From the IMG/VR virus record IMGVR_UViG_3300031920_000020, positions 1 to 36,625 of that record: a DNA stretch of 36,625 nt; one strand, given 5' to 3'. The position numbers and the translations under genes were made by a program. This stretch comes from a virus. Positions 16,438 through 36,625 of this stretch are shown here, in pieces (the first letter of the stretch is position 1; each line of letters opens with the position of its first letter). The notes under the pieces are model-generated. The model did no database searches. It was not told the DNA's origin and was given only the letters and a program-made list of their open reading frames with translations.

Positions 16438-16452
16438 TCTTACCTCCTTATC

Positions 16453-16492
16453 AAAAAGAACCCCCCCACCATTCAATAGGTAGGAGGGTTCT
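16453..16492 (-). terminator. Hairpin plus U-run terminator downstream of the capsid gene (T-phi-like position)
   Basis: Minus strand reads AGAACCC-U-CCUACC-UAUUGAAU-GGUGGG-G-GGGUUCU followed by UUUUG. It is followed directly by the SD of the next gene. Confidence 0.75.
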
Positions 16493-16503
16493 GATAGTTC
16501 AAT

Positions 16504-16519
16504 GTCTCACGTGTGAGAC
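16504..16519. promoter_or_regulatory. Dyad GTCTCAC-GT-GTGAGAC (copy 1 of 3)
   Basis: 7-bp inverted repeat with a 2-nt spacer, 14 nt downstream of the capsid stop. The flanks GTTGAAT/ATTGAAC extend the pairing. Confidence 0.6.
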
Positions 16520-16532
16520 TAATTCAACCTCA

Positions 16533-17633
16533 TCAGGCGTATACTTTAGTAGCGGTAGACTTGCCCTTAGCCTTAGCGAGGACAGCAGCATTATCAGCAA
16601 CAGCCGTTGAACCAACAACAGCAAGGTTGTCAAAGCGATCTGGAATAGCACCTTCAGATAGCCAAGAGTCAATGAAGAATGTCTTGGACTTCTTATCAAA
16701 GAAGATATCACCCTGCAACGTGATGGTACGACCAGTAAGCAGACCATCACTAGCATAAATGAGAGCATTAGCTGCTTGCATATCAGCGGTGACATCATAA
16801 CGATTACCGTTGTTAGCATTAGATAGTAAATGATGAGTCGCTCCAAAGTGTGGATTGAGCTTCATCTGAGTGAACTCAGCAGAACCCATGATAGGAATAT
16901 TCCATCCTTTCAATCGACCACGAAGTACAGCCATGCTAGTATCAACCATAGAGTCTCCACCCTGAACATCACCAATGAACTTGTAGTCATTGAGGATACC
17001 GAACTCAGAGATAGGAACAATGATCTTCATCTGGCCAACAGGTACACGTTGGATGATCAGGCCCATCAGAGCAATCTCAATTGCAGACATAAGCTGGTAA
17101 GGATCAGCAGCTTGAGTGTCATCATTCTTCAGCTCTACATTGATTGCAACACCCTGTCCAGAGACACGTGACACACCACCTGTAATAGTATTGGCATAAG
17201 GATCATATGCTCCACCAGTGAGCGCACCAGCAGCAACCTGCTGAATCACCATCTGATCTTCCATGATATTGAGCTTACCTACCTGATTCTTTGCAAGCTT
17301 GGTCATTACTTCAAAGTCATTCTGGATATCGTGGAGAGTATGGACAGAGTTACGTCCAAGCACGATGGTATCAATAAGTAGTGCGTTCTTGTTCATCTCA
17401 GTTGCAGTAGCATCTGGATCTTGCCCTGGAGTGAGAGTTTGCAGGGTAGTATCACCAATGGACTTATTAGATACCATGTTGGTTCCTACTACGTTCTGAA
17501 CCATGAAATCAGAGAGAAGACTCTCACCCTTCAGGTATTCTTGATGGACTACTCCAATGAACTTCTCAATGAGGAGTGTATCTACCTCGGTGTTATTGGC
17601 GACTGCCGGATTAGTTAGAATATTATCAGCCAT
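16533..17633 (-). CDS. Major capsid protein (gp10-like, HK97 fold)
   Basis: 366 aa. It lies between scaffold and tail tube. The N-terminal region resembles T7 gp10 (IEKFIGVVHQEY..., ...LIDTIVLGRNSVHTLHDIQNDFEV). It has a strong SD (AAGGAGG), its own promoter-like element and a terminator. Confidence 0.85.
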   Translation of the reverse strand: MADNILTNPAVANNTEVDTLLIEKFIGVVHQEYLKGESLLSDFMVQNVVGTNMVSNKSIGDTTLQTLTPGQDPDATATEMNKNALLIDTIVLGRNSVHTLHDIQNDFEVMTKLAKNQVGKLNIMEDQMVIQQVAAGALTGGAYDPYANTITGGVSRVSGQGVAINVELKNDDTQAADPYQLMSAIEIALMGLIIQRVPVGQMKIIVPISEFGILNDYKFIGDVQGGDSMVDTSMAVLRGRLKGWNIPIMGSAEFTQMKLNPHFGATHHLLSNANNGNRYDVTADMQAANALIYASDGLLTGRTITLQGDIFFDKKSKTFFIDSWLSEGAIPDRFDNLAVVGSTAVADNAAVLAKAKGKSTATKVYA

Positions 17634-17674: not shown

Positions 17675-17697
17675 CTCTTCTATGATGCAACCTAATT
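17675..17697 (-). promoter_or_regulatory. Phage-RNAP-type promoter-like 23-mer upstream of the capsid gene
   Basis: Minus strand reads AATTAGGTTGCATCATAGAAGAG. It matches the SP6 consensus ATTTAGGTGACACTATAGAAGAG (recalled) at 18/23 ungapped positions. It lies 47 nt upstream of the capsid ATG. Confidence 0.6.
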
Positions 17698-17714: not shown

Positions 17715-18479
17715 CTAGATTCCCTTGTTGATTCCAGCCTGTCTGAGCTTATCATACTTCGCAGGATCTTTATGGTACTCCCCAGTTGGGAACAAGGCAA
17801 GATACTCAGCTTTGGTAAGGGCAGTTATCACGTCACCCTTTCCATTATCTCCCTCTTCTAAGTCTAGTACTACTGAATCAGCAGAGAGGACAGGCTTACC
17901 AGCTACCTCAAACTTAGCATACATATCTTTAATCATCAACTGTTGCATCCGCATAGAGCCATGCTCCATAACGTTATTAAATTCCTCTACCTCATCAGGT
18001 GGTAGATTGCGCTGAGCATAATCCGCCATATCGTCCCAACGATCCTCACCACCCATCACCTCTAGGGTAGCATCCCATGCTTTCTGAGAAGCTGCTGTGA
18101 ACTCCTCTACCTGAGATTTATGAGCAGACAATGTATTATCATTCTGTGCTTTAATTCCAGCAAGATATGAATCTACTTGCCACTTCCCAAACTTATCATA
18201 AAGGCTATCTTTTGTCTCATCAGATAGTGAGAAGTCCTCTGAGGCATATAGCTCGGAAGCAACAGCGGATATATCAATTCCTGCTTCTCCTGCCAAATTA
18301 GCTAGGTCTGCTGGTATTGTGACAGTACCCTCAAAGTCACCAAGCTTTACTGAATCTTGAATAACATCTTCAGTTACAGCAACCCACTCACCTTCTGCTG
18401 GCTCTACTGGAATAACTGGCTCTGTAGGTTCTACTGGAATAACTGGCTCTATTGGATCTATTACAATCTCTTCACTCAT
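17715..18479 (-). CDS. Scaffolding protein (gp9-like)
   Basis: 254 aa and acidic, between portal and capsid, with an ATGA overlap to the portal stop. The N-terminus has a tandem 27-nt/9-aa repeat (EPVIPVEPT x2; 18412..18459). Confidence 0.7.
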   Translation of the reverse strand: MSEEIVIDPIEPVIPVEPTEPVIPVEPAEGEWVAVTEDVIQDSVKLGDFEGTVTIPADLANLAGEAGIDISAVASELYASEDFSLSDETKDSLYDKFGKWQVDSYLAGIKAQNDNTLSAHKSQVEEFTAASQKAWDATLEVMGGEDRWDDMADYAQRNLPPDEVEEFNNVMEHGSMRMQQLMIKDMYAKFEVAGKPVLSADSVVLDLEEGDNGKGDVITALTKAEYLALFPTGEYHKDPAKYDKLRQAGINKGI

Positions 18480-18935: not shown

Positions 18936-19677
18936 CATTAATATTATCGTAGGTTCGTTATTCCTACACTGCATGTTACCATGCAGATTAGACTATATCT
19001 TGCCCGCAATAGGCCTACTTGTTTCGAGCCACTTAGCTCTACTTCCTTTCGGAATAGTCGTTACACACCAACATTAAACTAACTTTGAAGTGATGTGACT
19101 CCAGTTCTTCCCTTGCCTAACTGACTTTATAGCGCCCACAGACACAGGGAGTTTTAGTTTATCCCTTATCTGTCTAGCTGTTAAAGTAGAATGTCTAAGA
19201 CTCCATATGGAGATGACATCAGTCTCTGTCAAGAGACTTATAGGGTTCTTTTCCCCCTTGTTAGTCTTTAATCCAGTATCATAAGCATGTTGTACATTTT
19301 GCTTACTGGTACACCACTCCAGATTTGAAGCTGTGTTTATGTACCTCTCTCCTTTAATATGATTTACCTGTGGGAGATTAAGTGGATTAGGGATGAAGTG
19401 TTCAGCAACTAGAAGATGAAGCGGATAGAATTTATCAAGATGTACTTTGACATATCTATTCTTTTTCGTAATTGTTGTACCCTTCAAGGTAACACCTGTT
19501 GTCTCATTAACTACGACACCAAGTGTATCTATACTGTATTCACATTTTAAATCTTTGTTTAGTCTTATCTTTCTGTAGAGCATTTAAGTCTCCTTAGTTA
19601 AAGATTAGTTGTTGCTAGGTATTGTCCCATAGGGAGTTTCACCTAATTAAAGTAGTTTATAGAGGGCAACTTTGTCT
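18936..19677 (-). mobile_element. Group I intron (742 nt) interrupting the portal gene; carries an HNH homing endonuclease ORF
   Basis: The 5' exon ends in U (GAGAGGGU|AGACAAAGUUGCCCUC). Intron nt 11-16 (GCCCUC) pair with exon GAGGGU to form P1 with a U.G pair. AGUU pairs with exon-2 AACU to form P10. The intron ends in G (UAUUAAUG|AACUAC). The 3' part has GNRA-capped stems (UUCC-GAAA-GGAA, CUGCAUG-GUAA-CAUGCAG). The spliced ORF is in frame. Confidence 0.8.
19074..19583 (-). CDS. Intron-encoded HNH homing endonuclease
   Basis: 169 aa. HNH_3-type motif: HLLVAEHFIPNP..QVNHIKGERYINTASNLEWCTSKQNVQHA. The C-terminus looks like a helix-turn-helix DNA-binding tail. It has its own SD (AAGGAG). Confidence 0.85.
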   Translation of the reverse strand: MLYRKIRLNKDLKCEYSIDTLGVVVNETTGVTLKGTTITKKNRYVKVHLDKFYPLHLLVAEHFIPNPLNLPQVNHIKGERYINTASNLEWCTSKQNVQHAYDTGLKTNKGEKNPISLLTETDVISIWSLRHSTLTARQIRDKLKLPVSVGAIKSVRQGKNWSHITSKLV

Positions 19678-20795
19678 ACCCTCTCGGCATCACGTCTAGC
19701 AGCGGAGTTCAGCAAGAATGCTTGACCAATCCTCTTCTCATACTCCTTGAGTACTTCTACTATAGGTGTAAAGTCCCCCAATCTCTCAAGCTGTAAGATC
19801 CCTACATCATCCATATTACCAAATATCCACTCCCCTGATGGTGCCGTGGAAATCTCATCTATGTCTGTCTCAGACCCTGGCTTGATTAGGTACTTGATGT
19901 CAGCCATCATTGCCATGCCTTTGACTAGGGCTTCAGATAGGAACTCAACTACATAAAAGTCACCTGCATAATCCTCTACGTGACCTCTACCATAATCCTC
20001 TCCACTAGCACTATTCCACCTGAGAGGTATCCAAGGCAGTTCCCCTTCAGGCACATCGAGAGGCTCTTTTATCACGATACCCTCTACAGCTTGAGTGACA
20101 GTGAAGGTCTCATGATCCTGCCTAACTACCCAAGTGTATATTGTTATGATAGCATTCTCGTCAGGTGCCTTGTCTCCTTTAATTATTTTGATACCTTCGA
20201 TGATATCGGGAGAGAGAGCAGAGAATGCTTTCTTCTGAGTTATGATAAGTTCAAGTAGGTTACCACTGAGGTCTCTCTGAAGTACATATCTGTCCAGCTT
20301 GATAGCCTGTAGCTTACCACCTTCTGGCAGTGCCATTAGAATATTACCTGAGATGATAAGGCTCTTCATTGCTTCTGTATATGCTACACGTGCAGCTATA
20401 GTCTCTGTATACGTCATTGCTTGCTTCTCTGCCTTAACTAAAAGCTCAGACAGCTTTGTTGCATCATGCCCTTCCTTCTTTAGAGAAGCTTTTGCTAATT
20501 CATTAAACTCTAATTTGAAGAAGGATCTTCCTACTGGAAACATATTAATGACAAGCTTGTTACTTAAGTGATTTACTGCCTGTGCTCCGATTGACTGGAA
20601 CCCATGCTGGTTAGCTCCAGCTCCTCTAGTAGTCCCATCATTATCAGGATACATAGAGGGAAGAGTGAACCTAGAGTACTCCCTTGCTTGATCTAAGAAT
20701 ACATTTCTATCTGATACCAAGGTCGAGTTCCTTGACTCCACATCAGATGGCGATCCTTTGGGCCTCCTTACTGCAACAGTGCGGTGCTCAGCCAT
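19678..20795 (-). CDS. Portal protein, exon 1 (N-terminal 372 codons plus 2 nt)
   Basis: gp8-like (..GANQHGFQSIGAQAVNHLSNKL..., ...SGEDYGRGHVEDYAGDF...). In the unspliced ORF, ...LNSAARRDAERV is followed by 9 intron-encoded codons and a stop. Confidence 0.85.
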
Positions 20796-21916: not shown

Positions 21917-22906
21917 TCAGGCAACATCAGAAGCCCCCTTGTCAAATCTAAGTTCACCTACTTTGGGCAGCCTGAGCTTGCCCTTGCTGCTCTCTTGCAG
22001 TGCGTACACTTGGAAGATCTTTCCTACTGGCCCAAGGGTCTTGTAGTACCCATCTTCTAGTAGGAAGTCTTCATGAGACATGACAAAGTTATCCCACATC
22101 TCCTCTGCATCAGCATGAGTCCAGCCCTTACCTAGCATACACTTGATCTCCTTCCCATCCTTCCACTCAAAGAAGAGGTTAGCTACTAGACCCTTGTACT
22201 TTCCGGTACCCTCTTCAGCACCTACGCACAGGAGATCGTAGTCTACACCCTTAACCTTCTTCCACATCCTCCAGCCCTTGTGTCCAGCTACCCATGCCTC
22301 ATCAGGCTTTAAGACAGTCCCCTCCTGGTTAGCATTTACACACACCTTGAAGTAATGATCTATCTCATCCTCATCATAGAGTAGTGTCCCTACCAGTACT
22401 TCATACTGCTTGGGTAGAACATCAATAAGCTCAAGGAGTCGCTCCTCATAGTCAGACTCAGATTCACCCTTGATGAAGTCATCAATCCCAAGGTAGTCAT
22501 GAAAGGACAAGTACGTGTGCTGCATAAGTAAAGTCTGCTCTTCACTGAGGGGCTTCACCCTATTAGGGTTTACCATACCAGAAAGAGTTTCCAGAGAGCA
22601 GTGATCGTTACAAAGCTCAGCTAGGTATATGCCAGATGCTGCTGAAGATGTCCAGAATAATCTAACTATCTCTCCAAGATTAGTAAACTTCATACCAGTT
22701 CTTGAGAATAGGTTGCAGTATTCGTTAGTACTGCCTAGATTATCCTTAAGCACGACATGGCAGTACACTCCATCTTTCTTAATCTGCCCACGTACAGGCC
22801 AGCTCTTCCTTGATTCAGGAACTTCATCCATGTTCCTAACCTTCATGGTAGTCTTCTCTTTTATTCTGTGGTTGGCTGGGAGGCCAAGGAACTCGAATAT
22901 ATTCAT
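21917..22906 (-). CDS. ATP-dependent DNA ligase
   Basis: 329 aa. It has motif I KxDG (QIKKDGVYC), motif IV (EGTVLK) and motif V (MWKKVK). Confidence 0.85.
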   Translation of the reverse strand: MNIFEFLGLPANHRIKEKTTMKVRNMDEVPESRKSWPVRGQIKKDGVYCHVVLKDNLGSTNEYCNLFSRTGMKFTNLGEIVRLFWTSSAASGIYLAELCNDHCSLETLSGMVNPNRVKPLSEEQTLLMQHTYLSFHDYLGIDDFIKGESESDYEERLLELIDVLPKQYEVLVGTLLYDEDEIDHYFKVCVNANQEGTVLKPDEAWVAGHKGWRMWKKVKGVDYDLLCVGAEEGTGKYKGLVANLFFEWKDGKEIKCMLGKGWTHADAEEMWDNFVMSHEDFLLEDGYYKTLGPVGKIFQVYALQESSKGKLRLPKVGELRFDKGASDVA

Positions 22907-23983: not shown

Positions 23984-24387
23984 TAACTCTCCTTTCTCTT
24001 AGCAGCAGCTTTCCTCCTCCGCTTCTTATTTAAAGCTAGTGTCTTTTCATTAGCTGTCTTATGATCCCAGTATATCCACTCCGTCTGGGGTGTGCTGTGC
24101 AGTTCCCAGAATGCTACTAAGTTCTTTGCATACTTAATGAGAGCAGCCTTGGTGCCTACACTACCCCACGTACTGAATACTCGTAGTACCTTTCCCTCTA
24201 GGCCATTACACCTACGGTGAACAGCAGCTCTTACTATCCCTGTCTTATGATCGTGGTCAACCACAATGTTAATAGGTGCAGTACCTAAGAGAGTCCTCCC
24301 GCAGATAGGGCATATAGCCCTCTGCCTGTGTATAAGCTCATCCCTTACAGTGGATAGCTCTGTTCGTTTGAACTTGGTACGCTCCAT
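23983..24387 (-). CDS. Recombination endonuclease VII
   Basis: Motif CPICGR...VDHDHKTGIVRAAVHRRCNGLEGK, with a basic C-terminal tail. Confidence 0.85.
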   Translation of the reverse strand: MERTKFKRTELSTVRDELIHRQRAICPICGRTLLGTAPINIVVDHDHKTGIVRAAVHRRCNGLEGKVLRVFSTWGSVGTKAALIKYAKNLVAFWELHSTPQTEWIYWDHKTANEKTLALNKKRRRKAAAKRKES

Positions 24388-25583
24388 AAGTCATCCTCAC
24401 TTGTCTGCATCCAGGCTAGTCGTCCCTGCTCAGTCAGTCTCTCCAACCAGGAATCCCCATACACGTTCTCATATGCTTGTCTCACACGAGAGACTAGTTC
24501 CTGCTCTGAGTCTGCACCATCTAGCATGGCGAATGCTTTAGTCATACCAACGTCTGGCAGACCTGAATAGTTATCTACTGTATCTCCTGTTATGATCTGA
24601 CTATAGAAGAACATCAGTCCAGTACCAGAGAGCTTATGCATGTAACTGCTTGGCTTCATTCCTACCTTAACACGCTTGAACTTACCTTTGTCTTTCTGTG
24701 CTCCACGTGTATAAGTATCTTGTGGACCGGACATATCATGCCACACATAATCCATCTCCCACCTATGCTTTGGGGATCTTATTTCATCCTTAGTCTTTAA
24801 GGTGAGCTTACCACCATACATCATGGGAACTTTGCAGTGCTTTAGGTTTACAGGCTTGCCACCGAAGCAAGGCCAGTACTCATAGTCTGTAACTTGCTTC
24901 TCTCTATATTCTGGGTCAAGAGATCCTAAAGGTGTAGCCCAGAAGAGATCCTTATCAGGTGGACAATGCCAAGTAGGTATCATCCTAAGATCTTTATCCT
25001 TAGATACTATAACAAAATTTGACATCTTCTTATGCCAAGCTGACCAGAGTTCCCCACCTTCATCTAGGAAGATCTTAATCCTCCTCCATGCTTCGATAGA
25101 AATATCATCATCAGCCTCTCTTCCTGTAGACAGGTGTGCTGAGTGGTGGGAGAGTAGCCAGTTCCTGATCTCCTGAAAGTAAGGAGGCTTCTCCTCTATT
25201 CGCTGCCCCTTGTAAGTCTTAGTCTCAGCTATAGCTTCTCTGAAGTTAGCCTCAAATGGTTGATCTTCACGTATCCCACCTCTCTCATAGTCTAGCTTAC
25301 TACTAGTCATGAACAGCATTGCACTATCACATCCAGCATTGTTGACCCACTTGTTCAGCAGGAAGCTAGCATGTTCTTTCTTTGACTGCCAGGATCTGTG
25401 CTCATTGAAGCTACCAGAACGCTTAGCAGCTAGGTACTCTGTCATATCTGAGGTGTAACCAACAACATAAGCTATTGCATCAGCATCAACTAGAGCTGTC
25501 CTTCTTCCTTCAGTGGGCCAGAGAAAGATGTTACTCTCTCCAGCCACATCCTTGCTGTCACATCCGAAATCAAAGTCACTCAT
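24345..25583 (-). CDS. 5'-3' exonuclease (T7 gp6-like, FEN/PIN fold) with extra internal segment
   Basis: The start is trimmed to MSDFDF (ATG 25583; ATGAGTGA overlaps the upstream stop). Motifs are ALVDADAIAY, YKGQR, READDD, SKDKD and GLMFFYSQIITGDTVDNYSGLPDVG. Confidence 0.75.
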   Translation of the reverse strand: MSDFDFGCDSKDVAGESNIFLWPTEGRRTALVDADAIAYVVGYTSDMTEYLAAKRSGSFNEHRSWQSKKEHASFLLNKWVNNAGCDSAMLFMTSSKLDYERGGIREDQPFEANFREAIAETKTYKGQRIEEKPPYFQEIRNWLLSHHSAHLSTGREADDDISIEAWRRIKIFLDEGGELWSAWHKKMSNFVIVSKDKDLRMIPTWHCPPDKDLFWATPLGSLDPEYREKQVTDYEYWPCFGGKPVNLKHCKVPMMYGGKLTLKTKDEIRSPKHRWEMDYVWHDMSGPQDTYTRGAQKDKGKFKRVKVGMKPSSYMHKLSGTGLMFFYSQIITGDTVDNYSGLPDVGMTKAFAMLDGADSEQELVSRVRQAYENVYGDSWLERLTEQGRLAWMQTSEDDLWSVPSSNEQSYPL

Positions 25584-25782
25584 TTTTACCCCACGATACC
25601 TTTGGCCCAAGTGATATAGTGTACCCGTACAGTACCAATAGGGTGAACGTGTCCTCCTCTTCAAATGGAGGTAATGTAATATAAGTCTCCCTCCTATCAC
25701 ATGCCTCTCTTATCAACCTATCTATCATTATTTGCTCTGACTCTCGGTAGGAGATAGTCCTAGCCTCCTCTGCACTAATCAC
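25576..25782 (-). CDS. Small protein, MISAEEAR paralogue 2 (GTG start)
   Basis: 68 aa. It shares the N-terminal MISAEEAR and the C-terminal YGY...SWG(K/R) with the upstream gene. A GTGA stop-start overlap links them. Confidence 0.55.
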   Translation of the reverse strand: MISAEEARTISYRESEQIMIDRLIREACDRRETYITLPPFEEEDTFTLLVLYGYTISLGPKVSWGKNE

Positions 25783-26136: not shown

Positions 26137-26151
26137 CGCTATCTCCTTGTC

Positions 26152-26200
26152 AAAAAGAACCCACCCCAAAGTGCCGATCACTAGGCTATGGGTGGGTTCT
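26152..26200 (-). terminator. Hairpin plus U-run terminator
   Basis: Minus strand reads AGAACCCACCC...(23-nt loop with inner AGUG/CACU stem)...GGGUGGGUUCU followed by UUUUG. The stem is 11 bp. Confidence 0.7.
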
Positions 26201-26665: not shown

Positions 26666-26688
26666 TCTTTCTATGATGCAACCTAATT
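26666..26688 (-). promoter_or_regulatory. Phage-RNAP-type promoter-like 23-mer
   Basis: Minus strand reads AATTAGGTTGCATCATAGAAAGA. It overlaps the TAA stop of the upstream ORF and lies 79 nt upstream of the ATG at 26592. Confidence 0.55.
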
Positions 26689-27829: not shown

Positions 27830-27926
27830 CCTTACAGCACTATAGGCTAATGCGGATAAGGGATAAGGGATATTATTGTTGACGTTCTTAATTTTCTTTT
27901 CTTTCTATGATGCAACCTTATTATAA
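27830..27926 (-). repeat. Two-block repeat, copy II (block 2 at 27830..27853; block 1 at 27882..27926)
   Basis: Minus-strand block 1 reads TTATAATAAGGTTGCATCATAGAAAGAAAAGAAAATTAAGAACGT. Block 2 reads GCATTAGCCTATAGTGCTGTAAGG. Both match copy I (1..83 plus 36595..36625). GGATAAG is tandemly repeated between the blocks. Confidence 0.8.
27900..27922 (-). promoter_or_regulatory. Phage-RNAP-type promoter-like 23-mer upstream of the SSB-like gene
   Basis: Minus strand reads AATAAGGTTGCATCATAGAAAGA. It forms the last codons and TAG stop of the DUF1353 gene. Confidence 0.55.
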
Positions 27927-28624: not shown

Positions 28625-31132
28625 CTAGTGGGTCTCAGTCCAACTAAGCCCAATTTTATACTCTCCTGCTGTTGGACATAGCAATCTTAGCTCCTCGCCA
28701 GCCCATGTTATAGAGTCACAGTATAGCTGTCCTAGTGGATGATACCTACGCTGGATGATCCAAGCATCTTCTCTCTTCTCAATCACAGTTGGTGCAGACC
28801 ACATCCTTCCTTCACTATCCCTGTGTTCTCTCTTCTCATCTAACTTCCATGCTTCCTTTGTAGGTTTGATATGATACTCATATGACAGCACCTCACTCTC
28901 TGGGACTTCCATCTGTGCCTCATCATGCTGATGAGCTACCATCCTAAAATCTGCTGCACGTTCTATTAGCCCTTGCTCCACTGCCATATCTTCTGCTCTA
29001 ACGTGTGCATGTTTCATGACAAGAGATCCTGTCATCTGTAGCAGTACATTAAGAGCTGTATGAATGGATAAGGTCTTGCCCTTGCTACGGATACGTCCAC
29101 GCCTACCATCTACAGCAAGCATGTACCCGAACTTCTTACCAGCAGCTTGCACTCCTTCAATCAGAGTAGCCAGCTTAGGTAGCTGCTCCTTGAATAACTC
29201 TACAGCATCAGCCATGTCCTGCATCTTCAGTCCTAGCTGCCTTGCAAGGTTCTTAATACCAGAGCCATACAGGAATGAATACACAAATACCTTGGCAATG
29301 TCACGGCTAGTAAGTCCAGCCTTCTCTTGATTGTAGGTGTGAATATCACCATTAAGTATGATGTCTGTATACTCTGGATCATTCATGAAGTGAGCAAGCA
29401 TCCTCAGTTCCAGACCTGCTCCATCACACCCAAGCAACATCATCCCTGGACCAGCTATGAAACATCTCCTCATCTGAGTCCCATACAGTCCACGAGCTGG
29501 GATGTTGACTACTATCTTATGTCTCATGCGATGGGTGTTGGTTGCACAAGCAAAGGCGTGTGCTGGTACTCTCCAGTGACCTGATGTAGGCCACACTCCA
29601 TTTAGTTCGTAGTATTCTTGAGCAGTGATGCTGCCGTGAGTAGCTCCAGCTCCCCAAAGTCTAGATTTAGGCAGGAGTCCACGGCATTCGTTATTCTTGC
29701 TAGCTTGTCTAGGCCATCTCTTGTTGAGACTGAAGTAATCAACATCTTTTCGGTTGAGTAACTGTGTACGCCGCGCGGACAGTATGTACCAACGTGCAAT
29801 ACCCTTGCACCAGTCGGGCACTGTGGATTCTGATTCTTCCCATCTTTCGAGGGACTTATCATCAATCTTCCCGGCCCATGGCTTGGGCAAGTCACCGTCG
29901 TTCTCTTCGATATAATCCGTTTCTGCATCATTGAAGTTGACTCCTATCCATCCATATTTGTATAGTATCTGCTTGACCTCATCTCTGTTACCAAGTGGTA
30001 TGTCTTCCCAGACTAGAGGTGTAAACGGGCCAGCAACTGGAGGCTTAGGGTAAGCTACGATATGCTTAACTCCTAAATGATCTGCTACCTCCAAGTCTAC
30101 AGTATGATCCTGCATGAACCCTCTTGCTGCTGGCACATGCTTGGTAACATTCTTTCCATACTCTCCATTCTTCTTAGTGATAGCCCAGATAGTTGAAGCG
30201 TACCCAGCCCTCATATCACCATTTAGCATATGATTCTCGTACTCCCCGGCTGGCATTGACAATAGCTCAGCTATAGCTGCCGCATTCTTCTCTATAGCAG
30301 CCTCACTATACTTCTTCATCTTAATACGTTGAGGCATGTGAGGCATGAATGCATCTCTGGTTGCTTTGATCTCTATGTCAAGCTCCTCTATGAGAGAACC
30401 CATAAACTCTACATCTATCGCAAACCCACGCTCAGCTTGATAGGCTACTGACTGTGCTACTCTGAACTCGTTCTCATAGGCTGAACGAATATCCTTTCCT
30501 GTTATATTATGAGGTCTATCAAGATGATCATCCCACTCTTTCATAAGGAAATTAAAGAAGTCCTCACCAATCTCAACATCCTCTGCTACCCTGTGTATCA
30601 TATCAATAGATAGGTGAGACCAATCTTCATGGTGTGGCTTGTGCCTGTCTATCCTTATACCATGTGCTGCAATAGAGTGAGGAGGTACATTACCTAAGCC
30701 TAGGTGCAGTGCTGCCCAAGGTGCCCTCCTCTCTGGGTTAAGAACCTGACTCATCACCATGGTATCAGCAGTCTTAAACGGGAACAGCTCATGGTTGATT
30801 CGTTGCATGTGATTACGCTTGATCTTAACACCCATAGCCTTCTCTATAGCTAGTTGGTCATACCCAACTACATTCTGCCAGATGAGGACATCACAGGTCT
30901 CGATACATCTGATACCTTCAGCCATATCTCCAGCCTTCTCATCTTCTTCATACTCATCCAGCCATACTGGATCTACTCTATCATTGAAGTCGTCAAAGAA
31001 AGAGAATGTCTCCCCTGAGTAGTAGTCTTTTAACCTGAGTATATGTAGATCCTCTCTGTGTCCTGGGCGAATATCAGGGAGGAGACCTACTGCTTCTAAA
31101 TCAGCGGTTAATACTCTTCCTTTTCCGTTCAT
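28625..31132 (-). CDS. Family A DNA polymerase with 3'-5' exonuclease domain
   Basis: Exo I is LTADLEAVGL. Motif A is CDGAGLELRMLAHF, motif B is RDIAKVFVYSFLYGSG and motif C is VAHQHDEAQMEV. Confidence 0.9.
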   Translation of the reverse strand: MNGKGRVLTADLEAVGLLPDIRPGHREDLHILRLKDYYSGETFSFFDDFNDRVDPVWLDEYEEDEKAGDMAEGIRCIETCDVLIWQNVVGYDQLAIEKAMGVKIKRNHMQRINHELFPFKTADTMVMSQVLNPERRAPWAALHLGLGNVPPHSIAAHGIRIDRHKPHHEDWSHLSIDMIHRVAEDVEIGEDFFNFLMKEWDDHLDRPHNITGKDIRSAYENEFRVAQSVAYQAERGFAIDVEFMGSLIEELDIEIKATRDAFMPHMPQRIKMKKYSEAAIEKNAAAIAELLSMPAGEYENHMLNGDMRAGYASTIWAITKKNGEYGKNVTKHVPAARGFMQDHTVDLEVADHLGVKHIVAYPKPPVAGPFTPLVWEDIPLGNRDEVKQILYKYGWIGVNFNDAETDYIEENDGDLPKPWAGKIDDKSLERWEESESTVPDWCKGIARWYILSARRTQLLNRKDVDYFSLNKRWPRQASKNNECRGLLPKSRLWGAGATHGSITAQEYYELNGVWPTSGHWRVPAHAFACATNTHRMRHKIVVNIPARGLYGTQMRRCFIAGPGMMLLGCDGAGLELRMLAHFMNDPEYTDIILNGDIHTYNQEKAGLTSRDIAKVFVYSFLYGSGIKNLARQLGLKMQDMADAVELFKEQLPKLATLIEGVQAAGKKFGYMLAVDGRRGRIRSKGKTLSIHTALNVLLQMTGSLVMKHAHVRAEDMAVEQGLIERAADFRMVAHQHDEAQMEVPESEVLSYEYHIKPTKEAWKLDEKREHRDSEGRMWSAPTVIEKREDAWIIQRRYHPLGQLYCDSITWAGEELRLLCPTAGEYKIGLSWTETH

Positions 31133-31508: not shown

Positions 31509-31521
31509 CCTCACAAAATAT

Positions 31522-31537
31522 GTCTCACGTGTGAGAC
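31522..31537. promoter_or_regulatory. Dyad GTCTCAC-GT-GTGAGAC (copy 2 of 3)
   Basis: It abuts the TAG stop of 31537..32202. An extra GTGAGG half-site lies 7 nt further on the minus strand. Confidence 0.6.
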
Positions 31538-32202
31538 TATTTAAGTATATTCTTACGTAATTGTACTGGCCTAGCTTTTGAGTACAAATAGTAGTTAGCA
31601 GTAGGGTAATACTTGTAGTACTTTCTTAACATTCTATTATCCCCATAGTAGGAGACAATATCAGTCACGTTGACCTCACCCATCATTGATGAGTCAGAGA
31701 GATCTTTTGCTACGCACTGACAAGAGAGTGGAAAGAACTCCAGCATCCAGTGGTATATAGAGTCATGATTTATAATAGCATACAGCAAGTCAAACTTAAC
31801 ACCCTGACTCTCGAGCTTCACTATTACTTTACAACTGCCATCATCATTAATCTCTTCATCTGCCGCATCCTCTTCATCTGCCGCATGATACTGTACGTAG
31901 ACTTCACAACTAGAGAATCCTAGCACTAAATAGTTCTTTTCCCAGAAGGTCTTGATCTTCTCTGTGTCCCAAGTTCCAGTTCTATCCCAGATAACCAGAT
32001 CATAGTCATTAGCCTTGTGGGGTAAGAGTGAACCACCTACCTGATAGACCTTGATCTTATCATTAGACATCTTGTGCAGTTCCATCAGTGCTGTCATGTA
32101 GGCATTAGCATGTATCTCTTTAGCCACGTTATACCACGCGTGTGATACAGATTTTCCTGATCCTCTTACACTCCCTACCATTGCTACATTAGTATGAGTC
32201 AT
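31537..32202 (-). CDS. Hypothetical protein with a possible pol-beta-type nucleotidyltransferase motif
   Basis: The start is trimmed to MTHTNV (ATG 32202 after GGAGAGG; it overlaps the primase-helicase end by 14 nt). VGGSLLPHKANDYDLVIW fits hG[GS]-x7-DxD, and a later VKFDLLY could supply the third acidic residue. AADEE(D) is duplicated from an 18-nt tandem repeat at about 31853..31886. Confidence 0.3.
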   Translation of the reverse strand: MTHTNVAMVGSVRGSGKSVSHAWYNVAKEIHANAYMTALMELHKMSNDKIKVYQVGGSLLPHKANDYDLVIWDRTGTWDTEKIKTFWEKNYLVLGFSSCEVYVQYHAADEEDAADEEINDDGSCKVIVKLESQGVKFDLLYAIINHDSIYHWMLEFFPLSCQCVAKDLSDSSMMGEVNVTDIVSYYGDNRMLRKYYKYYPTANYYLYSKARPVQLRKNILK

Positions 32203-34168
32203 TGTCCTCTCCATATTGTTTAGGTTGCTTACGTTTCTTATTAACTCCATCATCAAACCCATCCTGTACAGGAGGTCTGTCCTCAGTCTGTTCCAGCTTA
32301 CCTGTGCTCATGTTCTTCTTAGTGTATACCTTAGTCCCTGTCATGTGACCAACCTCTCTGGTCTTAAGGTTCTTCAGTATGAGTAGACATCTCTCACTTA
32401 AGGTAGGTGCTGTCGTGTTACGTATCCCAGCCCAAACATCATCAGCCCAAAATACAATACTCCCAGCACCCCTAAAATCATTGAGTGTGACATCTCCTCC
32501 CTCCTCGAATGGTGTTCGATCGCCATAGACTTTCTTAAGGTGAGATAATAGGAAGATTGATATAGGATTCTCATCCTTGAATGTACCTAGCCTCTTCATC
32601 GTCTCATCAATAGCCTCTACTTTTGAAACAGCTTTACCATTTTCTCCTTTATGCTCAAAAGCAGTGAGGTTATCAACCACGAACTTTGTAAACCCAAGAG
32701 CAGAAGCCTCTTCCAGCACTTGCATAACGCTCGATACATCCTTACGACCTTCGAGGTCTCCAATATAGATTCTATTGTCATTACATAACCTGTCAATTGC
32801 TTCATTAGCTTCCTCCTCTGTATAGTCTCTAAGTTCCTCGTAGTCAGGGTCATCTTTGTCATTGCAAGGAGGAGCATTGAGGTTCTTATTGATGAGGTAT
32901 CCAGCGAAGGAACGTACTGTCTTGTCTGCTCTCTCCTCTAGGTAGATTACAACGAGCTGGATGTTGAAGGTGTAGGCTAGAAAGAATACGACCTCCTTAG
33001 TTAAGGTAGTCTTTCCAACACCCGTACCCATACCCCAGACAGACATCGTGTAGTCTCGGATACCATAGGTTACTTTATTCATCAGCTCCCAAGGCCAGGA
33101 CAGCCCCATAGTAGGAACCTTCTTTGCCTTCTCTCTATACTTATCCATGGAGTTAAGATATCCACCTTCAAATAGGTCAGCAGGGTTCCACCATGCATCC
33201 ATGAACTCCTTCCCTCTACCTTGCTTGAGTGCATCATTAGGATCTTTGCATCCAGCGGGTAGCTTGAGCTGCTTAACCTTGGTGCGGAAGATACGACCAA
33301 CATCTCTATTGAGTTTCTTACCTACCTCATCATCATCGAAGCAGACTAAGACCTTCTTAAACTTGTTGATCTCATCCTTGTTCAGAATGATCTCTTCAAT
33401 AGCCATCTCTCCCTTAGTTGGTGACCATACGTGTTCATAGACCCCCTCCCACTTGCTGCCTACCTTGGCCTCCAGCATCATAGTCTGTGCAGCTAGCACA
33501 TCACACTCACCACCTACTAACAAGAGCGTATCCATCCTAGCCCCTGACTCCATAGCTGCTGCTGTCTGCTTCTGTCCAAACATGAGATTGTCACCCCAAG
33601 TCCAACCGAGTGACCCATACTTGAAATCTTTAGGTAGGGTACGACACTTAGCTCCCTTCCACTCGCCATCATGATAGTCATAGGTTGGGTAATAATGTCT
33701 AGCTACCTTGCCATCTAATCCTAACCCAACTCGCACGTTATAGAACTTAGCTACGTTCCCTGGGATGTGTCTCGATACAAGGTTCTTAACCTTAAGTTGA
33801 TTGAAGTAAGACTCGTCACCATTCCTCTCTTCTATCAGTCTATCTCTCTCATCTTGGTTGGCAACCGCCCAGCGGTCCACGCCTTTCATTCCAGATAGAG
33901 CTATCTCTCTGATCGTAGGGTTATCGAGCTTGCCTTCTCTAACCAGTTCCTCAAACTGACTCTGTGTGTACTTGATTGTTCCAGTTACTTCCATGTTCAA
34001 TATAGGACTCTCACCATCAGCAGGGATTAGCAGCACTTGTCCATCCTTATGCCAATGTGCTCTATTGCAAAACTTGACACCATCAGAGAATACAATCATG
34101 TTAGTCCCCTTAGCATCATGCCCCATGTGCTGGCATTCAGGGCAAGGTACATTCATCACGATACTCAT
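32189..34168 (-). CDS. Bifunctional primase-helicase (T7 gp4-like)
   Basis: 659 aa. It has an N-terminal zinc motif (CPECQH...C..AHWH), a TOPRIM region (LLVGGECD...VCFDDDEVGKK) and a DnaB-like Walker A (GMGTGVGKTT). Confidence 0.9.
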   Translation of the reverse strand: MSIVMNVPCPECQHMGHDAKGTNMIVFSDGVKFCNRAHWHKDGQVLLIPADGESPILNMEVTGTIKYTQSQFEELVREGKLDNPTIREIALSGMKGVDRWAVANQDERDRLIEERNGDESYFNQLKVKNLVSRHIPGNVAKFYNVRVGLGLDGKVARHYYPTYDYHDGEWKGAKCRTLPKDFKYGSLGWTWGDNLMFGQKQTAAAMESGARMDTLLLVGGECDVLAAQTMMLEAKVGSKWEGVYEHVWSPTKGEMAIEEIILNKDEINKFKKVLVCFDDDEVGKKLNRDVGRIFRTKVKQLKLPAGCKDPNDALKQGRGKEFMDAWWNPADLFEGGYLNSMDKYREKAKKVPTMGLSWPWELMNKVTYGIRDYTMSVWGMGTGVGKTTLTKEVVFFLAYTFNIQLVVIYLEERADKTVRSFAGYLINKNLNAPPCNDKDDPDYEELRDYTEEEANEAIDRLCNDNRIYIGDLEGRKDVSSVMQVLEEASALGFTKFVVDNLTAFEHKGENGKAVSKVEAIDETMKRLGTFKDENPISIFLLSHLKKVYGDRTPFEEGGDVTLNDFRGAGSIVFWADDVWAGIRNTTAPTLSERCLLILKNLKTREVGHMTGTKVYTKKNMSTGKLEQTEDRPPVQDGFDDGVNKKRKQPKQYGEDNDSY

Positions 34169-34226
34169 GTAGTCCTCCTTATTAATTAACGAAGCAAGCG
34201 CAAGGATCTCTCCTCACGCTATGACT

Positions 34227-35162
34227 TCACAATAGAAATGTTTCTTTGAATGTTTGTAAGCCTTTCCTCCCTGTCCACCCAGCAGTATGACCACCTTCAA
34301 GAATGTACTTAAAGGATGGCCCACTAACCTTATCAGCGAGAGCTAGTACTTGCCTTGAGTCAGTGATATTATCAGTTCTACCAGCGTAGCAATGAGTTGG
34401 ACAGGTGATGCTTTCTAGCTTAACTAGTTTACCATTCACTCTCCATGTCCCATCATACAGTCTGTTATCACGGAACAGATTTTCTAACGCATCCATAAAC
34501 CACACACCAGCTAGATCAAGTTTGTTATCGTACCATGCATTATTCTTATCCCACTTGGCAAGACCAACCTCATCACTGTTACGTACCATCTCGGCTCTAT
34601 CAAGGTGTCGTTGTACATAGATCTGATGAGGGTCAACCATACTAAATGCAAGCCATTGCAAGGCACCTAGTTGAAGCCCTAAGTTCATCATTACTACCAT
34701 GCGTTGCATCTCTACCACAAAGGGCTTGCGCATGTGCTTCTCAATCAGATTATCAGGAGCACAGTTAGTATTAATAGGGGCCACAAATACAGCCAGCTTC
34801 TTAACGTTATCAGGGTTCTGTGCAGTGTAGATGCTAGATACCCACCCACCCTGACACAACCCGACTATCTCAATGTCAACACCAAGGAACTCATGTATTG
34901 CACCTATAGCATTGACAAGATCACTAACACTTGTATTATTTGTCATCCATGTAGCTGACTTAAGCTCGAATGCTACTACAGGTCTTCCAGTCTGGACAGC
35001 AACTTTTATGAGGTTAAGGCTAATAGTCCAGTCCCGACCAGCATGTGGAGGAACTACTACTATTGGTGTTCCTGTTCCTGTTGAAAACATGTGCCATACA
35101 TAAACAGGTGTCTCGATAACTTTGGTACTACCATATTTAGTTTCCATTGTAACCTCAATCAA
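34227..35162 (-). CDS. PHA-synthase-like (class III PhaC-like) alpha/beta-hydrolase with Cys nucleophile
   Basis: 311 aa. Motifs are PIVVVPPHAGRDW, GxCxGG box GLCQGGW, NLFRDNRLYDGTWRVNGKLVKLESITCPTHCYAGRTDNITD and EGGHTAG. This gives a Cys-Asp-His order as in PhaC. Confidence 0.65.
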   Translation of the reverse strand: MIEVTMETKYGSTKVIETPVYVWHMFSTGTGTPIVVVPPHAGRDWTISLNLIKVAVQTGRPVVAFELKSATWMTNNTSVSDLVNAIGAIHEFLGVDIEIVGLCQGGWVSSIYTAQNPDNVKKLAVFVAPINTNCAPDNLIEKHMRKPFVVEMQRMVVMMNLGLQLGALQWLAFSMVDPHQIYVQRHLDRAEMVRNSDEVGLAKWDKNNAWYDNKLDLAGVWFMDALENLFRDNRLYDGTWRVNGKLVKLESITCPTHCYAGRTDNITDSRQVLALADKVSGPSFKYILEGGHTAGWTGRKGLQTFKETFLL

Positions 35163-35173
35163 CTAAGGGTGAA

Positions 35174-35192
35174 GTGCTGGGTTGTCCAGCAC
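35174..35192 (-). other. Leader stem-loop between the promoter-like element and the PhaC-like gene
   Basis: GTGCTGG-ACAAC-CCAGCAC: a 7-bp stem with a 5-nt loop and no U-run. Confidence 0.5.
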
Positions 35193-35194
35193 TC

Positions 35195-35217
35195 TTATTC
35201 TATGATACAACCTAATT
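35195..35217 (-). promoter_or_regulatory. Phage-RNAP-type promoter-like 23-mer (variant)
   Basis: Minus strand reads AATTAGGTTGTATCATAGAATAA. It overlaps the TAG stop of the 210-aa ORF and lies 38 nt upstream of the ATG at 35162. Confidence 0.5.
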
Positions 35218-35844
35218 CAGCAAGAAGCCCTCTATCTTTCCTTGGCACATGCATCTTTGCTCCGTAAGGTATCGGAGGTCATCATTAACATCCATCCAGA
35301 ATGTGTCACCTCTGTCCCCTCTCAACCTTAGTTGAGTACCTGCTTTCGATATTGTTAACCTCATAACAAGGAAGTTATCTCCTCCACCCCAATCATGGTA
35401 TGCAAGGTCATATGCAACACCAGCAAGGTCAGCGTGAGTAGTCCATGGGATAGGTGTGAAGTTAATATCAAGACCATCGATAGTTACACCTACTGTCATA
35501 CCGTTAGGGAGAGGCGCTGCTGGCACTTGATTACCCCAGCCTCCACTATCAAACGAACCTCCATCCCTAATGAGGAATACGAACCTAGTCATAATATAGA
35601 TCTGTCCTATTGGCACATCCAAATTGAACCTAACAGGTGTTATAGATCCGTCTACTGCCATGTTCCTATTTACTGTAGTAGGTGGTGGGCCTTGAAACAG
35701 GGACTTATAGAATGGTGCCTCTTGTGGCCCACTCATAGCATCTTTTATGATCTGATCGTACCTAGTGGCTGGGGCTTCAGGTGGATCGCCCTGCATTTCA
35801 TAGTAGTCTCTCTTTACTTCCCCTTCTAGCACTCTCAAGGTCAT
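35212..35844 (-). CDS. Hypothetical 210-aa protein (predicted beta-rich)
   Basis: SD is GGGAGGT. I could not recognise any motif. Confidence 0.6.
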   Translation of the reverse strand: MTLRVLEGEVKRDYYEMQGDPPEAPATRYDQIIKDAMSGPQEAPFYKSLFQGPPPTTVNRNMAVDGSITPVRFNLDVPIGQIYIMTRFVFLIRDGGSFDSGGWGNQVPAAPLPNGMTVGVTIDGLDINFTPIPWTTHADLAGVAYDLAYHDWGGGDNFLVMRLTISKAGTQLRLRGDRGDTFWMDVNDDLRYLTEQRCMCQGKIEGFLLN

Positions 35845-35861
35845 ACCTACCTCCCATTATC

Positions 35862-35889
35862 AAAAGAAACCCCGCCCATAAAGGCGAGG
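35862..35889 (-). terminator. Hairpin plus U-run terminator after the early ORFs
   Basis: Minus strand reads CCUCGCC-UUUAUG-GGCGGGG (7 bp including one G.U pair) followed by UUUCUUUUG. The SD of the next gene follows directly. Confidence 0.65.
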
Positions 35890-35908
35890 CTAGTTGTCTA
35901 CCTATCGT

Positions 35909-35924
35909 GTCTCACATGTGAGAC
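35909..35924. promoter_or_regulatory. Dyad GTCTCAC-AT-GTGAGAC (copy 3 of 3; perfect 16-bp palindrome)
   Basis: It abuts the TAG stop of 35924..36208. Confidence 0.6.
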
Positions 35925-36208
35925 TACTCTAATTCAAATGAATCAAACACATCATACACTATCCAAGATCCATCATCATAGCCACGTTCAAGATGTAGAT
36001 AAGCTAGATTTAGTACAGCTATTGTCTCTATGAGAACTGACCTTAGTGCTATCTGTCCATTGTCTTCGAAGTATACTGCTTCCCCTGGACTCTTCATTGC
36101 CTTAGCTATCAGTCGCAGAGCCTCAGCCTTTGATTGACCACTACATCTGCTGATACATTTCTTATTTAGTGAGTATTTACCAGACAGTTTGTTATGAAAG
36201 ACTTTCAT
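35924..36208 (-). CDS. Hypothetical early protein
   Basis: 94 aa. SD is GAGGG. Confidence 0.55.
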   Translation of the reverse strand: MKVFHNKLSGKYSLNKKCISRCSGQSKAEALRLIAKAMKSPGEAVYFEDNGQIALRSVLIETIAVLNLAYLHLERGYDDGSWIVYDVFDSFELE

Positions 36209-36329
36209 GGTCTACCCTCTTGTTAGTGCGCTCTACTTTGCGCTTTCTATCTGTTGACTTATCCTTGCTGGGAAGTGCTTCTTTGTCCAGCTTCCTTGGC
36301 TTCCTCATCTTCTCAACATTTGTCTGCAT
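36192..36329 (-). CDS. Possible small basic early ORF (45 aa; below the track cutoff)
   Basis: Hand translation gives MQTNVEKMRKPRKLDKEALPSKDKSTDRKRKVERTNKRVDHESLS. AAGGGA lies upstream. It fills an otherwise 130-nt gap and overlaps the next start. Confidence 0.3.
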   Translation of the reverse strand: MQTNVEKMRKPRKLDKEALPSKDKSTDRKRKVERTNKRVDHESLS

Positions 36330-36338
36330 TGCATCCCT

Positions 36339-36557
36339 TTAGAATAATTTGTTAGCCCGTCTAAGCACTACTCTTATGTCTTGTTTTAAGGCGGTCAATA
36401 TAGCTAGGGGATTACTTGGTGCTGCTCCTCTCATTCTAGATATCTTGAAATCAAACTCACCAACTCCATTATGCGCATAGGGATCTATCTCAGTGATATC
36501 TACTGTATATTTAGTTCCTTCTGCCTCTAGCTCCATTGTACATTCTGTCTCAGACAT
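36339..36557 (-). CDS. Hypothetical first early protein
   Basis: 72 aa with a weak SD. It is the first ORF downstream of repeat copy I. Confidence 0.5.
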   Translation of the reverse strand: MSETECTMELEAEGTKYTVDITEIDPYAHNGVGEFDFKISRMRGAAPSNPLAILTALKQDIRVVLRRANKLF

Positions 36558-36594
36558 AGTGTTCTCTCAGTTATAGTTAATTTAGACTACTAGC

Positions 36595-36618
36595 CCTTAC
36601 AGCACTATATGTTAATGC
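36595..36618 (-). repeat. Block 2 of two-block repeat, copy I
   Basis: Minus strand reads GCATTAACATATAGTGCTGTAAGG, versus GCATTAGCCTATAGTGCTGTAAGG at 27830..27853. Confidence 0.8.
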
Positions 36619-36625
36619 ATACAGG
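36598..36625. repeat. Second copy of the 28-nt terminal overlap
   Basis: Exact identity to 1..28. Confidence 0.85.

Follow-up and report, generated by a model that had tools for sequence, protein, structure and literature searches.

The locus examined here raises the question of what a lytic phage would do with a relative of the enzymes of polyester metabolism. The window (the whole stretch of DNA analysed, 36,625 nt, positions 1 to 36,625 of IMG/VR record IMGVR_UViG_3300031920_000020) is a T7/SP6-like podovirus with all genes on the minus strand. Just upstream of its replication genes, the primase/helicase and the DNA polymerase (Table 1), it carries a gene whose product had been described from the letters alone (hereafter the sequence-only reading) as a class III synthase-like protein of polyhydroxyalkanoate (PHA), with the location given correctly. 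The product was placed in the superfamily of the PHA synthase PhaC and the intracellular PHA depolymerase PhaZ, as a separate lineage that is a member of no characterised family, and it is tentatively interpreted here as an auxiliary metabolic enzyme that mobilises host PHA, either as a depolymerase or by thiolysis.

An open reading frame (ORF) is present at 34227-35162 (minus strand) and encodes 311 aa counted from a TTG, as first proposed, but its start was revised. Judged from the sequence, the ATG at 35147 is almost certainly the true start, because a GAGG precedes it by 5 nt and the homologues start at the aligned Met; the TTG at 35162 is an in-frame alternative upstream, and residues are numbered below on the 306-aa product. 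A search of 5.8 billion proteins returned 13 homologous protein clusters (35-51% identical, 306-331 aa, best E 1e-93) and the AlphaFold2 model built on the family alignment was confident (pLDDT 85.6, pTM 0.88), so that this is clearly a real gene and no chance ORF. The motifs PIVVVPPHAGRDW, GLCQGGW, ITCPTHCYAGRTDNITD and GGHTAG were all found in the translated ORF. In a family alignment of 14 sequences with 35-51% identity, Cys98, Gln99, Gly100, Trp102, Asp259 and His287 were invariant; the Cys nucleophile, the Cys-Asp-His order and the GxCxGG box (GLCQGGW) in place of the serine lipase box were thus borne out, and the triad aligned with that of PhaC. In a PDB sequence search that gave a weak match to Cupriavidus necator PhaC (5hz2), GLCQGG aligned with GFCVGG, TDNIT with EDHIV and GGHTAG with SGHIAG. 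So strictly conserved a triad speaks for a functional acyl-cysteine enzyme.

The best curated profile (NCBIfam) was TIGR01836, class III PhaC (E 8.2e-23, 81.0 bits, model positions 126-327 of 350), whose cut-off of 365.3 bits was missed; the genuine PhaC proteins of loci L006 and L024, run for comparison, scored 418.7 and 438.5 bits. The cut-offs of TIGR01838, class I PhaC (E 8e-11; cut-off 623 bits), and of TIGR01849, PhaZ (E 1.9e-8, 33.5 bits; cut-off 300.75), were also missed. The top Pfam match was PF06850, PHB_depo_C (E 5e-6, 26.4 bits, just under the gathering score of 27), for which most homologues carry a precomputed match. PF11339, DUF3141, fell short of its gathering score (E 5e-5, 22.6 bits vs 29.7), and the product measures 306 aa vs ~580 aa for DUF3141 proteins (592 aa in the reference protein). 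PHROGs held nothing meaningful for the hydrolase or its small neighbours. By profile-profile alignment (HHalign), class III PhaC was matched with Prob 99.8, score 210 and E 2e-29, vs Prob 97.5, score 90 and E 5e-12 for a PhaZ profile made of 2 sequences.

In the predicted model, strand order, a nucleophile elbow after beta5, a cap insertion and an acid and a His on late loops are those of an alpha/beta-hydrolase fold. The best 14 PDB matches by Foldseek were all PhaC catalytic domains (9knk, 5t6o, 5hz2, 6k3c, 5xav; E 1e-12 to 8e-15, TMq 0.69-0.74), and other alpha/beta-hydrolases, including esterases and lipases, reached TMq <=0.59; the cap subdomain is thus PhaC-cap-like (TMq 0.74 to PhaC). 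Foldseek probability was 1.00 to PhaC and to many alpha/beta-hydrolases alike. The profile and structure checks against an unrelated hydrolase family, suggested with the sequence-only reading, both returned PhaC as the best match. No intracellular PhaZ structure occurred among the 50 PDB matches listed, and the fold search therefore cannot tell a synthase from a depolymerase. A structural search of BFVD found generic alpha/beta-hydrolases only (TMq <=0.58) and no PhaC-like viral structure.

Motif comparison, with PhaZ motifs drawn from two annotated PhaZ sequences, suggests that the phage family is a mosaic of PhaC, PhaZ and DUF3141 types. The loop after beta3 is PPHAGR(H/D) in the phage family, PPQAGHH in a clade of cellular relatives described below, APxSGH in PhaZ and DPRAGH in DUF3141, and PhaC has INK/INR instead. 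The Asp motif is D-N-I-T in the window and D-x-I-T in the family, DDI[SC] in PhaZ, DNIT in DUF3141 and D-H in PhaC, Asn taking the place of the PhaC His after Asp259. The nucleophile elbow is GLCQGGW in the phages, GICQGG in class III PhaC, NCQAGW in DUF3141 and AVCQP in PhaZ. Trp205 is conserved in the phage family; PhaC also has a Trp, and PhaZ is without one. All but one of the PhaC references (seven III-type, four I-type) have D-H, the exception being a haloarchaeal paralogue with D-Q, and they carry INR/INK too. The N-terminal likeness to the PhaC VPPxINK segment that had been claimed thus holds for the strand only, since the loop is of the PhaZ/DUF3141 type with no INK/INR...LDL, and the block likened to Allochromatium-type PhaC is present with its Asp aligned but has D-N-I-T for D-H.

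Taken as a whole, the window protein resembles class III PhaC (e.g. that of Allochromatium vinosum, which works with PhaE) in its alpha/beta core and cap, the order and spacing of Cys-Asp-His, the GxCQGG elbow, the conserved Trp and an NxL(Y/F)xG block ahead of the Asp strand, and class III PhaC is its best hidden Markov model, HHalign and structural match. Unlike class III PhaC, it is without the first ~60-90 N-terminal residues, has PPHAGR(H) for the (Y/P)xxINR...LDL loop and D-x-I-T for D-H, and has no PhaE. With PhaZ (e.g. PhaZa1 of Ralstonia eutropha) it shares the Cys-Asp-His triad, the Gln right after Cys, the same side of the tree and, as seen in the cellular relatives, a gene separate from the synthase, and it resembles PhaZ in the loop after beta3, Pxx(S/A)G(H/R), and in the Asp motif, of the form D-D/x-I-(S/T/C). 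It differs from PhaZ in the elbow (GLCQGGW for CQP) and the Trp, and PhaZ has ~80-100 additional N-terminal residues and a weaker HHalign match.

A neighbour-joining tree (simple distances, unrooted, 50 representatives with verified references, 200 bootstraps) separated class I PhaC and genuine class III PhaC from PhaZ, DUF3141, the cellular clade and the phage clade in 198/200 replicates, and by this sequence comparison the phage family is placed outside PhaC I and III, on the PhaZ/DUF3141 side. The phage clade was monophyletic (199/200) and nested at the tip of the cellular clade; P0028 joined it in 172/200 replicates, and P0028, L025c and L022c together did so in 132/200. The description as class III PHA-synthase-like is therefore retained for profile and structural resemblance, and is not supported as to synthase identity in view of the TIGR01836 score and the 198/200 split, among other features.

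The cellular clade (the 'third clade') is the direct sister of the phage proteins, with ~30% identity over near-full length and the motifs PPxAG(H/R)H, G(L/D)CQGGW, AGxxD(D/H)IT and GH(I/L)G in common. Its members, ~350-420 aa, are encoded in 428 GTDB species genomes (Thermodesulfobacteriota, Actinomycetota, Solirubrobacterales, Chloroflexota and others). The phage proteins differ in being shorter (306-334 aa, without the N-terminal extension), in having Arg for the beta3-loop His and GHT for GHI/L, and in their gene neighbourhood, which is one of replication/early genes where the cellular genes are linked to phaC/phaR. On TIGR01836 the cellular proteins reached 108-137 bits and on TIGR01849 60-99 bits, far from both cut-offs, and they therefore belong to neither family; they are labelled 'alpha/beta fold hydrolase' or 'DUF3141 domain-containing' by NCBI, and by JGI about as often PHB depolymerase as PHA synthetase. 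A class I- or III-type phaC was found within +/-8 kb of the cellular relative in 43/80 fetched loci, in many of them directly adjacent (for example L087, 5629-7374 / 7638-8906, and L098, L076, L028 and L024, from the set L022-L101), and 10 of the linked phaC genes, checked by NCBIfam, scored 271-708 bits on TIGR01838 or TIGR01836. PhaR was encoded within three flanking genes either side in 4/22 cellular loci, and no TIGR01849-type PhaZ was present in the 80 fetched loci. Depolymerases are classically encoded by a gene of their own next to the synthase gene. The position of the cellular relatives beside phaC/phaR therefore points to a partner enzyme such as a depolymerase and not to the synthase itself.

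Some further members of the superfamily were noted. YHS-domain and DUF5676 membrane-protein genes were neighbours in both L102 (a Burkholderia thailandensis plasmid with a third-clade hydrolase) and L105 (a Roseibium plasmid with a DUF3141 protein), and a VTT/DedA-domain protein was encoded near the hydrolase in L102 and near phaZ in L107; these loci hint that part of the superfamily belongs to a context other than PHA, one related to membranes or metals. Three third-clade homologues (P0198, P0207 and P0221) were assigned to 'Nanoarchaeota archaeon' or 'archaeon' metagenome-assembled genomes on contigs of 1-37 kb; they may be genuine archaeal members or else come from phage or bacterial contigs that were binned wrongly. 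Apart from these, FkbU of Streptomyces is described as a 'PHB decomposition gene'.

The survey of related phages suggested with the sequence-only reading showed the gene to be recurrent. The phage-borne clade comprises ~30 clusters or loci, including 14 IMG/VR loci, in unrelated uncultivated phages whose contigs range from 11 to 238 kb and from 32 to 53% GC, with T7-like and ERF/YqaJ-type phages among them. Genes on these contigs include those for terminase, T7-type RNA polymerase (RNAP), ERF/YqaJ recombination proteins, DnaB and UvrD, and the neighbours of the hydrolase gene are replication and nucleotide genes. The gene thus lies in bona fide phage genomes, recurs among them and is neither a replication nor a structural gene, as is expected of a phage auxiliary metabolic gene. 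The only close relative of the window phage is L005, in which the hydrolase gene stands directly upstream of the RNAP gene; identity between the two phages is 43% for the hydrolase, 50% for the primase and 44% for the DNA polymerase, which suggests that the hydrolase has been retained vertically since their common ancestor. No tblastn match to the hydrolase was found among GenBank phages (50,697 records), and a megablast of the right-hand 11.6 kb of the window gave only a trivial 48-bp match. Three phage-clade members carry the JGI label 'poly(3-hydroxyalkanoate) synthetase'.

One member of the phage clade, P0008 (306 aa, 43% identical), lies on a bacterial contig, 2.6 kb from phaR, and has after it phaJ, a gene for a GAF protein, a genuine class III phaC (TIGR01836, 418.7 bits) and phaE; P0008 had no phage genes at its sides, and its GC was like that of its surroundings. 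Among 100 phage neighbours (+/-5 kb, L008-L021) were two GDSL-type lipases/acylhydrolases, one CMAS-type (cyclopropane/mycolic acid synthase-like) methyltransferase and one nicotinate phosphoribosyltransferase, any of which may be another lipid or metabolic auxiliary gene.

The gene is preceded by a predicted promoter of the kind used by single-subunit RNAPs (Table 1). The 20-nt element AATWAGGTTGYATCATAGAA occurs in five exact copies in the window, all on the minus strand (61-80, 17678-17697, 26669-26688, 27903-27922 and 35198-35217), against 0 copies expected by chance (100 shuffles); the consensus of the five copies is TATAATTAGGTTGCATCATAGAAAGAAA, and the promoter block is conserved while the flanks upstream of it are not. 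What we take to be the SP6 consensus is ATTTAGGTGACACTATAGAAG, of which the window promoter, by our own comparison, matches ~15 of 21 positions. The element fits a single-subunit RNAP promoter as far as its sequence goes. The promoter-like element and leader hairpin of the sequence-only reading are both real, the promoter being of the SP6 phage-RNAP type. A sigma-70-like site (35173-35146) is not above chance: five such sites were found vs 7.0 +/- 2.7 expected from shuffles, and the -10 element overlaps the ATG, so this candidate was rejected. The 76-nt leader (35140-35215) folds at -20.3 kcal/mol (z = -2.65). The hairpin was also rejected as an intrinsic terminator of its own strand, as no U-run follows it on the minus strand. 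No terminator-like site was found in the 58-nt gap between the hydrolase and primase/helicase genes (scan of 33900-36625), and the primase/helicase gene is probably in the same phage-promoter transcription unit as the hydrolase gene.

The reading favoured, tentatively, is that the protein mobilises the PHA of a presumably PHA-storing host; it rests on the conserved triad, on the improbability of a synthase, on the position of the cellular relatives near phaC/phaR and on the precedent of the Cys-type depolymerase PhaZa1, which is reported to yield 3-hydroxybutyryl-coenzyme A (3HB-CoA) by thiolysis (Uchino 2007, as summarised in a review, PMC7147478). The hydrolase would be a cytoplasmic, stand-alone Cys-Asp-His enzyme. 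The nucleophile would be Cys98, with His287 and Asp259 activating it; its attack on the polyester would give an acyl-S-enzyme, from which either water would release 3-hydroxybutyrate or oligomers or coenzyme A (CoA) would release 3HB-CoA, and the products would supply acetyl-CoA and reducing power to phage replication. The gene is apparently the first of an SP6-type-promoter unit that runs into the primase/helicase, so that its expression would coincide with DNA replication. Shown by the analysis are the fold and triad, the placement of the clade, the phage promoter, the spread of the gene among phages and the linkage of the cellular relatives to pha genes; the PHA substrate, its breakdown rather than its synthesis and the benefit to the phage are what we infer here. 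A more specific form of this reading, in which unrelated phages share a minimal enzyme that turns PHA granules into 3HB-CoA by CoA-dependent thiolysis and express it with their replication genes, is rather unlikely.

Several points weigh against PHA mobilisation. Overall similarity is nearer to class III PhaC than to canonical PhaZ, both by HHalign and by profile score (81 vs 33.5 bits), and the GxCQGG elbow and Trp205 resemble PhaC, not PhaZ. The tree is unrooted and based on simple distances, and PhaZ and DUF3141 sit on long branches in it. No PHA-related gene, PhaE included, stood beside the hydrolase in the phage loci (100 neighbours, 13 viral loci), and some proteobacterial members are found in non-PHA contexts, such as a Burkholderia plasmid with YHS, DUF5676, FtsH and MFS genes. 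In the literature nothing experimental was found on an assayed member of the phage or cellular clade, on DUF3141 function or on a phage PHB depolymerase.

The alternative that survives best, though we consider it unlikely, is an acyl-thioester or ester hydrolase or an acyltransferase that acts on a non-PHA substrate, with a PhaC-like scaffold repurposed for host takeover or metabolite rerouting; candidate substrates are acyl-CoA or 3-hydroxyacyl-CoA (as a thioesterase), another lipid or a small ester. The failure to reach any curated PHA family threshold is in keeping with it, as are the occurrence of proteobacterial relatives and DUF3141 among YHS, DUF5676 and VTT neighbours, the phage neighbourhoods, in which replication and nucleotide genes are joined now and then by GDSL lipases and by a CMAS-type lipid methyltransferase but by no PHA gene, and the change of the beta3-loop His of the cellular proteins to Arg in the phages, which hints at an altered active-site environment. 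Against a non-PHA substrate stand the recurrent link of the cellular clade to phaC/phaR (43/80 loci), the place of P0008 beside a complete pha locus and a cap that matches the PhaC cap (TMq 0.74) and not those of esterases and lipases (<=0.59). The sequence-only reading had itself allowed for a repurposed acyltransferase or thioesterase acting on PHA or acyl-CoA pools, and this part of it fits better than a synthase, the cellular relatives adjoining a genuine-type phaC.

A working minimal class III-like PHA synthase, acting alone or borrowing PhaE, PhaR or phasins from the host and polymerising hydroxyacyl-CoA during infection, is improbable. Its case consists of the best profile, profile-profile and structural matches, all to PhaC, the PhaC-type GxCxGG box, a Trp that aligns with the one in the WNGD segment of C. 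necator PhaC (presumably Trp425), and the JGI name of the three phage-clade members. The score of 81 bits against a cut-off of 365, the position outside PhaC I and III in 198/200 replicates and the lack of the N-terminal segment, the D-H dyad, the INK/INR loop and PhaE speak against it. Without PhaE, class III PhaC has almost no activity, and class I enzymes need their N-terminal domain. The protein is indeed shorter than cellular PhaC and has no PhaE-like partner, as first noted: the flanking ORFs (210, 94, 72 and 241 aa) had no Pfam or PHROG match, and none of those in the window was PhaE-like (PF09712). Moreover, storing carbon as polymer is hard to square with a lytic T7-like life style, and the cellular relatives adjoin a separate genuine-type synthase. 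A non-catalytic, regulatory mimic of PhaC that binds PHA granules, PhaE or PhaR and so blocks host PHA synthesis or relocalises granules would suit a compact protein without N-terminal and partner regions that in L005 lies with takeover-type small genes directly upstream of the RNAP gene, but it is highly improbable, as the strict invariance of Cys, Asp, His and the CQGxW elbow at only 35-51% identity points to catalysis.

The features of the locus and of the rest of the window are collected in Table 1.

Table 1. Coordinates of the hydrolase gene, its control elements and the other annotated genes of the window.
Feature	Position	Strand	Remarks
PhaC/PhaZ-superfamily alpha/beta-hydrolase, coding sequence	34227..35147	minus	306 aa + stop; compact; from ORF list, profile matches, AlphaFold2 and Foldseek
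Ribosome-binding site GAGG	35153..35156	minus	5 nt upstream of ATG 35147; read from sequence
Nucleophile Cys98 codon, inside GLCQGGW	34854..34856	minus	invariant; aligned with Cys of PhaC, PhaZ and DUF3141
Asp259 codon, inside AGRTDNIT	34371..34373	minus	invariant; aligned with PhaC Asp480 (REDHIVP) and PhaZ DDI
His287 codon, inside GGHTAG	34287..34289	minus	invariant; aligned with catalytic His of PhaC and PhaZ
SP6-type single-subunit-RNAP promoter (predicted) AATTAGGTTGTATCATAGAA	35198..35217	minus	overlaps stop of upstream 210-aa ORF; predicted +1 near 35200
Leader hairpin	35173..35193	minus	9-bp stem, 3-5 nt loop; between promoter and ribosome-binding site
Primase/helicase	32189-34168	minus	PHROG 239, E 3e-133; next gene downstream of hydrolase
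DNA polymerase	28625-31132	minus	~47% identical to SP6-like phage polymerases
Exonuclease	24345-25700	minus	
Ligase	21917-22906	minus	
Portal / head-tail adaptor	19647-20795	minus	
Major capsid	16533-17633	minus	
Tail protein	13330-15765	minus	
Internal virion protein	5066-9031	minus	
Tail fibre	2529-5057	minus	
Terminase	93-1979	minus	

No RNAP gene was found in the 36.6-kb window despite its five SP6-type promoters. When IMG/VR was searched, the exact promoter had 0 matches, and the search for close primase/helicase relatives gave only matches of 27-29% identity; neither search recovered the missing RNAP or a longer version of the phage. An identical 28-nt sequence stands at both contig ends (1-28 and 36598-36625). 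It also forms the leader that follows the promoter at 61-80, and is similar to that (27833-27875) of the promoter at 27903-27922. This overlap could reflect circular closure or a break of the assembly graph at a repeat, and a graph break would explain the absent early region and RNAP.

Repeated elements were also present. The palindrome TAGTCTCACACGTGAGACA occurs in four copies (16502-16524, 24477-24499, 31520-31542 and 35907-35929) and a block composed of a G-rich stem, a U-run and a ribosome-binding site, GGGGGGTTCTTTTTGATAAGGAGG, in three (16441-16467, 26140-26166 and 35850-35876); the palindromes at 16502 and 35907 are followed by the block within ~60 nt, and the block at 26140 has no palindrome nearby. 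They are likely to serve as phage terminators or as sites of RNase III-type processing. One palindrome/block set, which includes a terminator-like site (35891-35868), is situated just before the 210-aa ORF that stands upstream of the hydrolase gene, and another comes after the major capsid gene. In T7, T-phi likewise follows the major capsid gene. Two in-frame tandem duplications were seen: a 17-nt unit in two copies starting 18 nt apart (31852-31886) in the 241-aa ORF, encoding a repeated AADEE(D/I), and a 27-nt unit in two copies (18394-18447) in a 254-aa ORF (17715-18479).

The fold, the triad and the idea of PHA-related auxiliary genes in phages are already known, so that the system is not new in kind. 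In PHA-producing mixed cultures, phage contigs have been reported to carry phaC, with one phage phaC closely resembling that of a host bin (PMC12013262), and a Gloeobacter prophage has been reported to carry phaZ (PMC13317609). The present case is like these in that phages carry genes of the PHA cycle as auxiliary metabolic genes. Those reports are based on the annotation of putative phage or prophage contigs, whereas the gene described here belongs to a distinct, diverged, phage-specific clade and is kept in lytic T7-like phages under a phage promoter. No description of this minimal phage clade, or of its cellular sister clade, was found in the literature.

PHA granules can make up much of the mass of starved bacteria. 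To our knowledge, it is largely unknown how lytic phages are supplied with carbon and energy in starved, PHA-loaded cells, and a PHA-superfamily enzyme that is conserved in phages and driven by a phage promoter offers a testable handle on that supply. Should the thiolytic form of PHA mobilisation hold, the enzyme would be an energy-conserving 'reverse synthase' that fuels phage replication in starved, polymer-loaded cells, and the phaC-adjacent cellular clade of Actinomycetota, Thermodesulfobacteriota and Chloroflexota would represent a widespread, so far missing class of PHA depolymerases that act inside the cell. A single enzyme assay could settle the annotation of hundreds of bacterial genes now called synthase, depolymerase or DUF3141, and the minimal 306-aa scaffold may be of interest to PHA enzymology and to bioplastic engineering.

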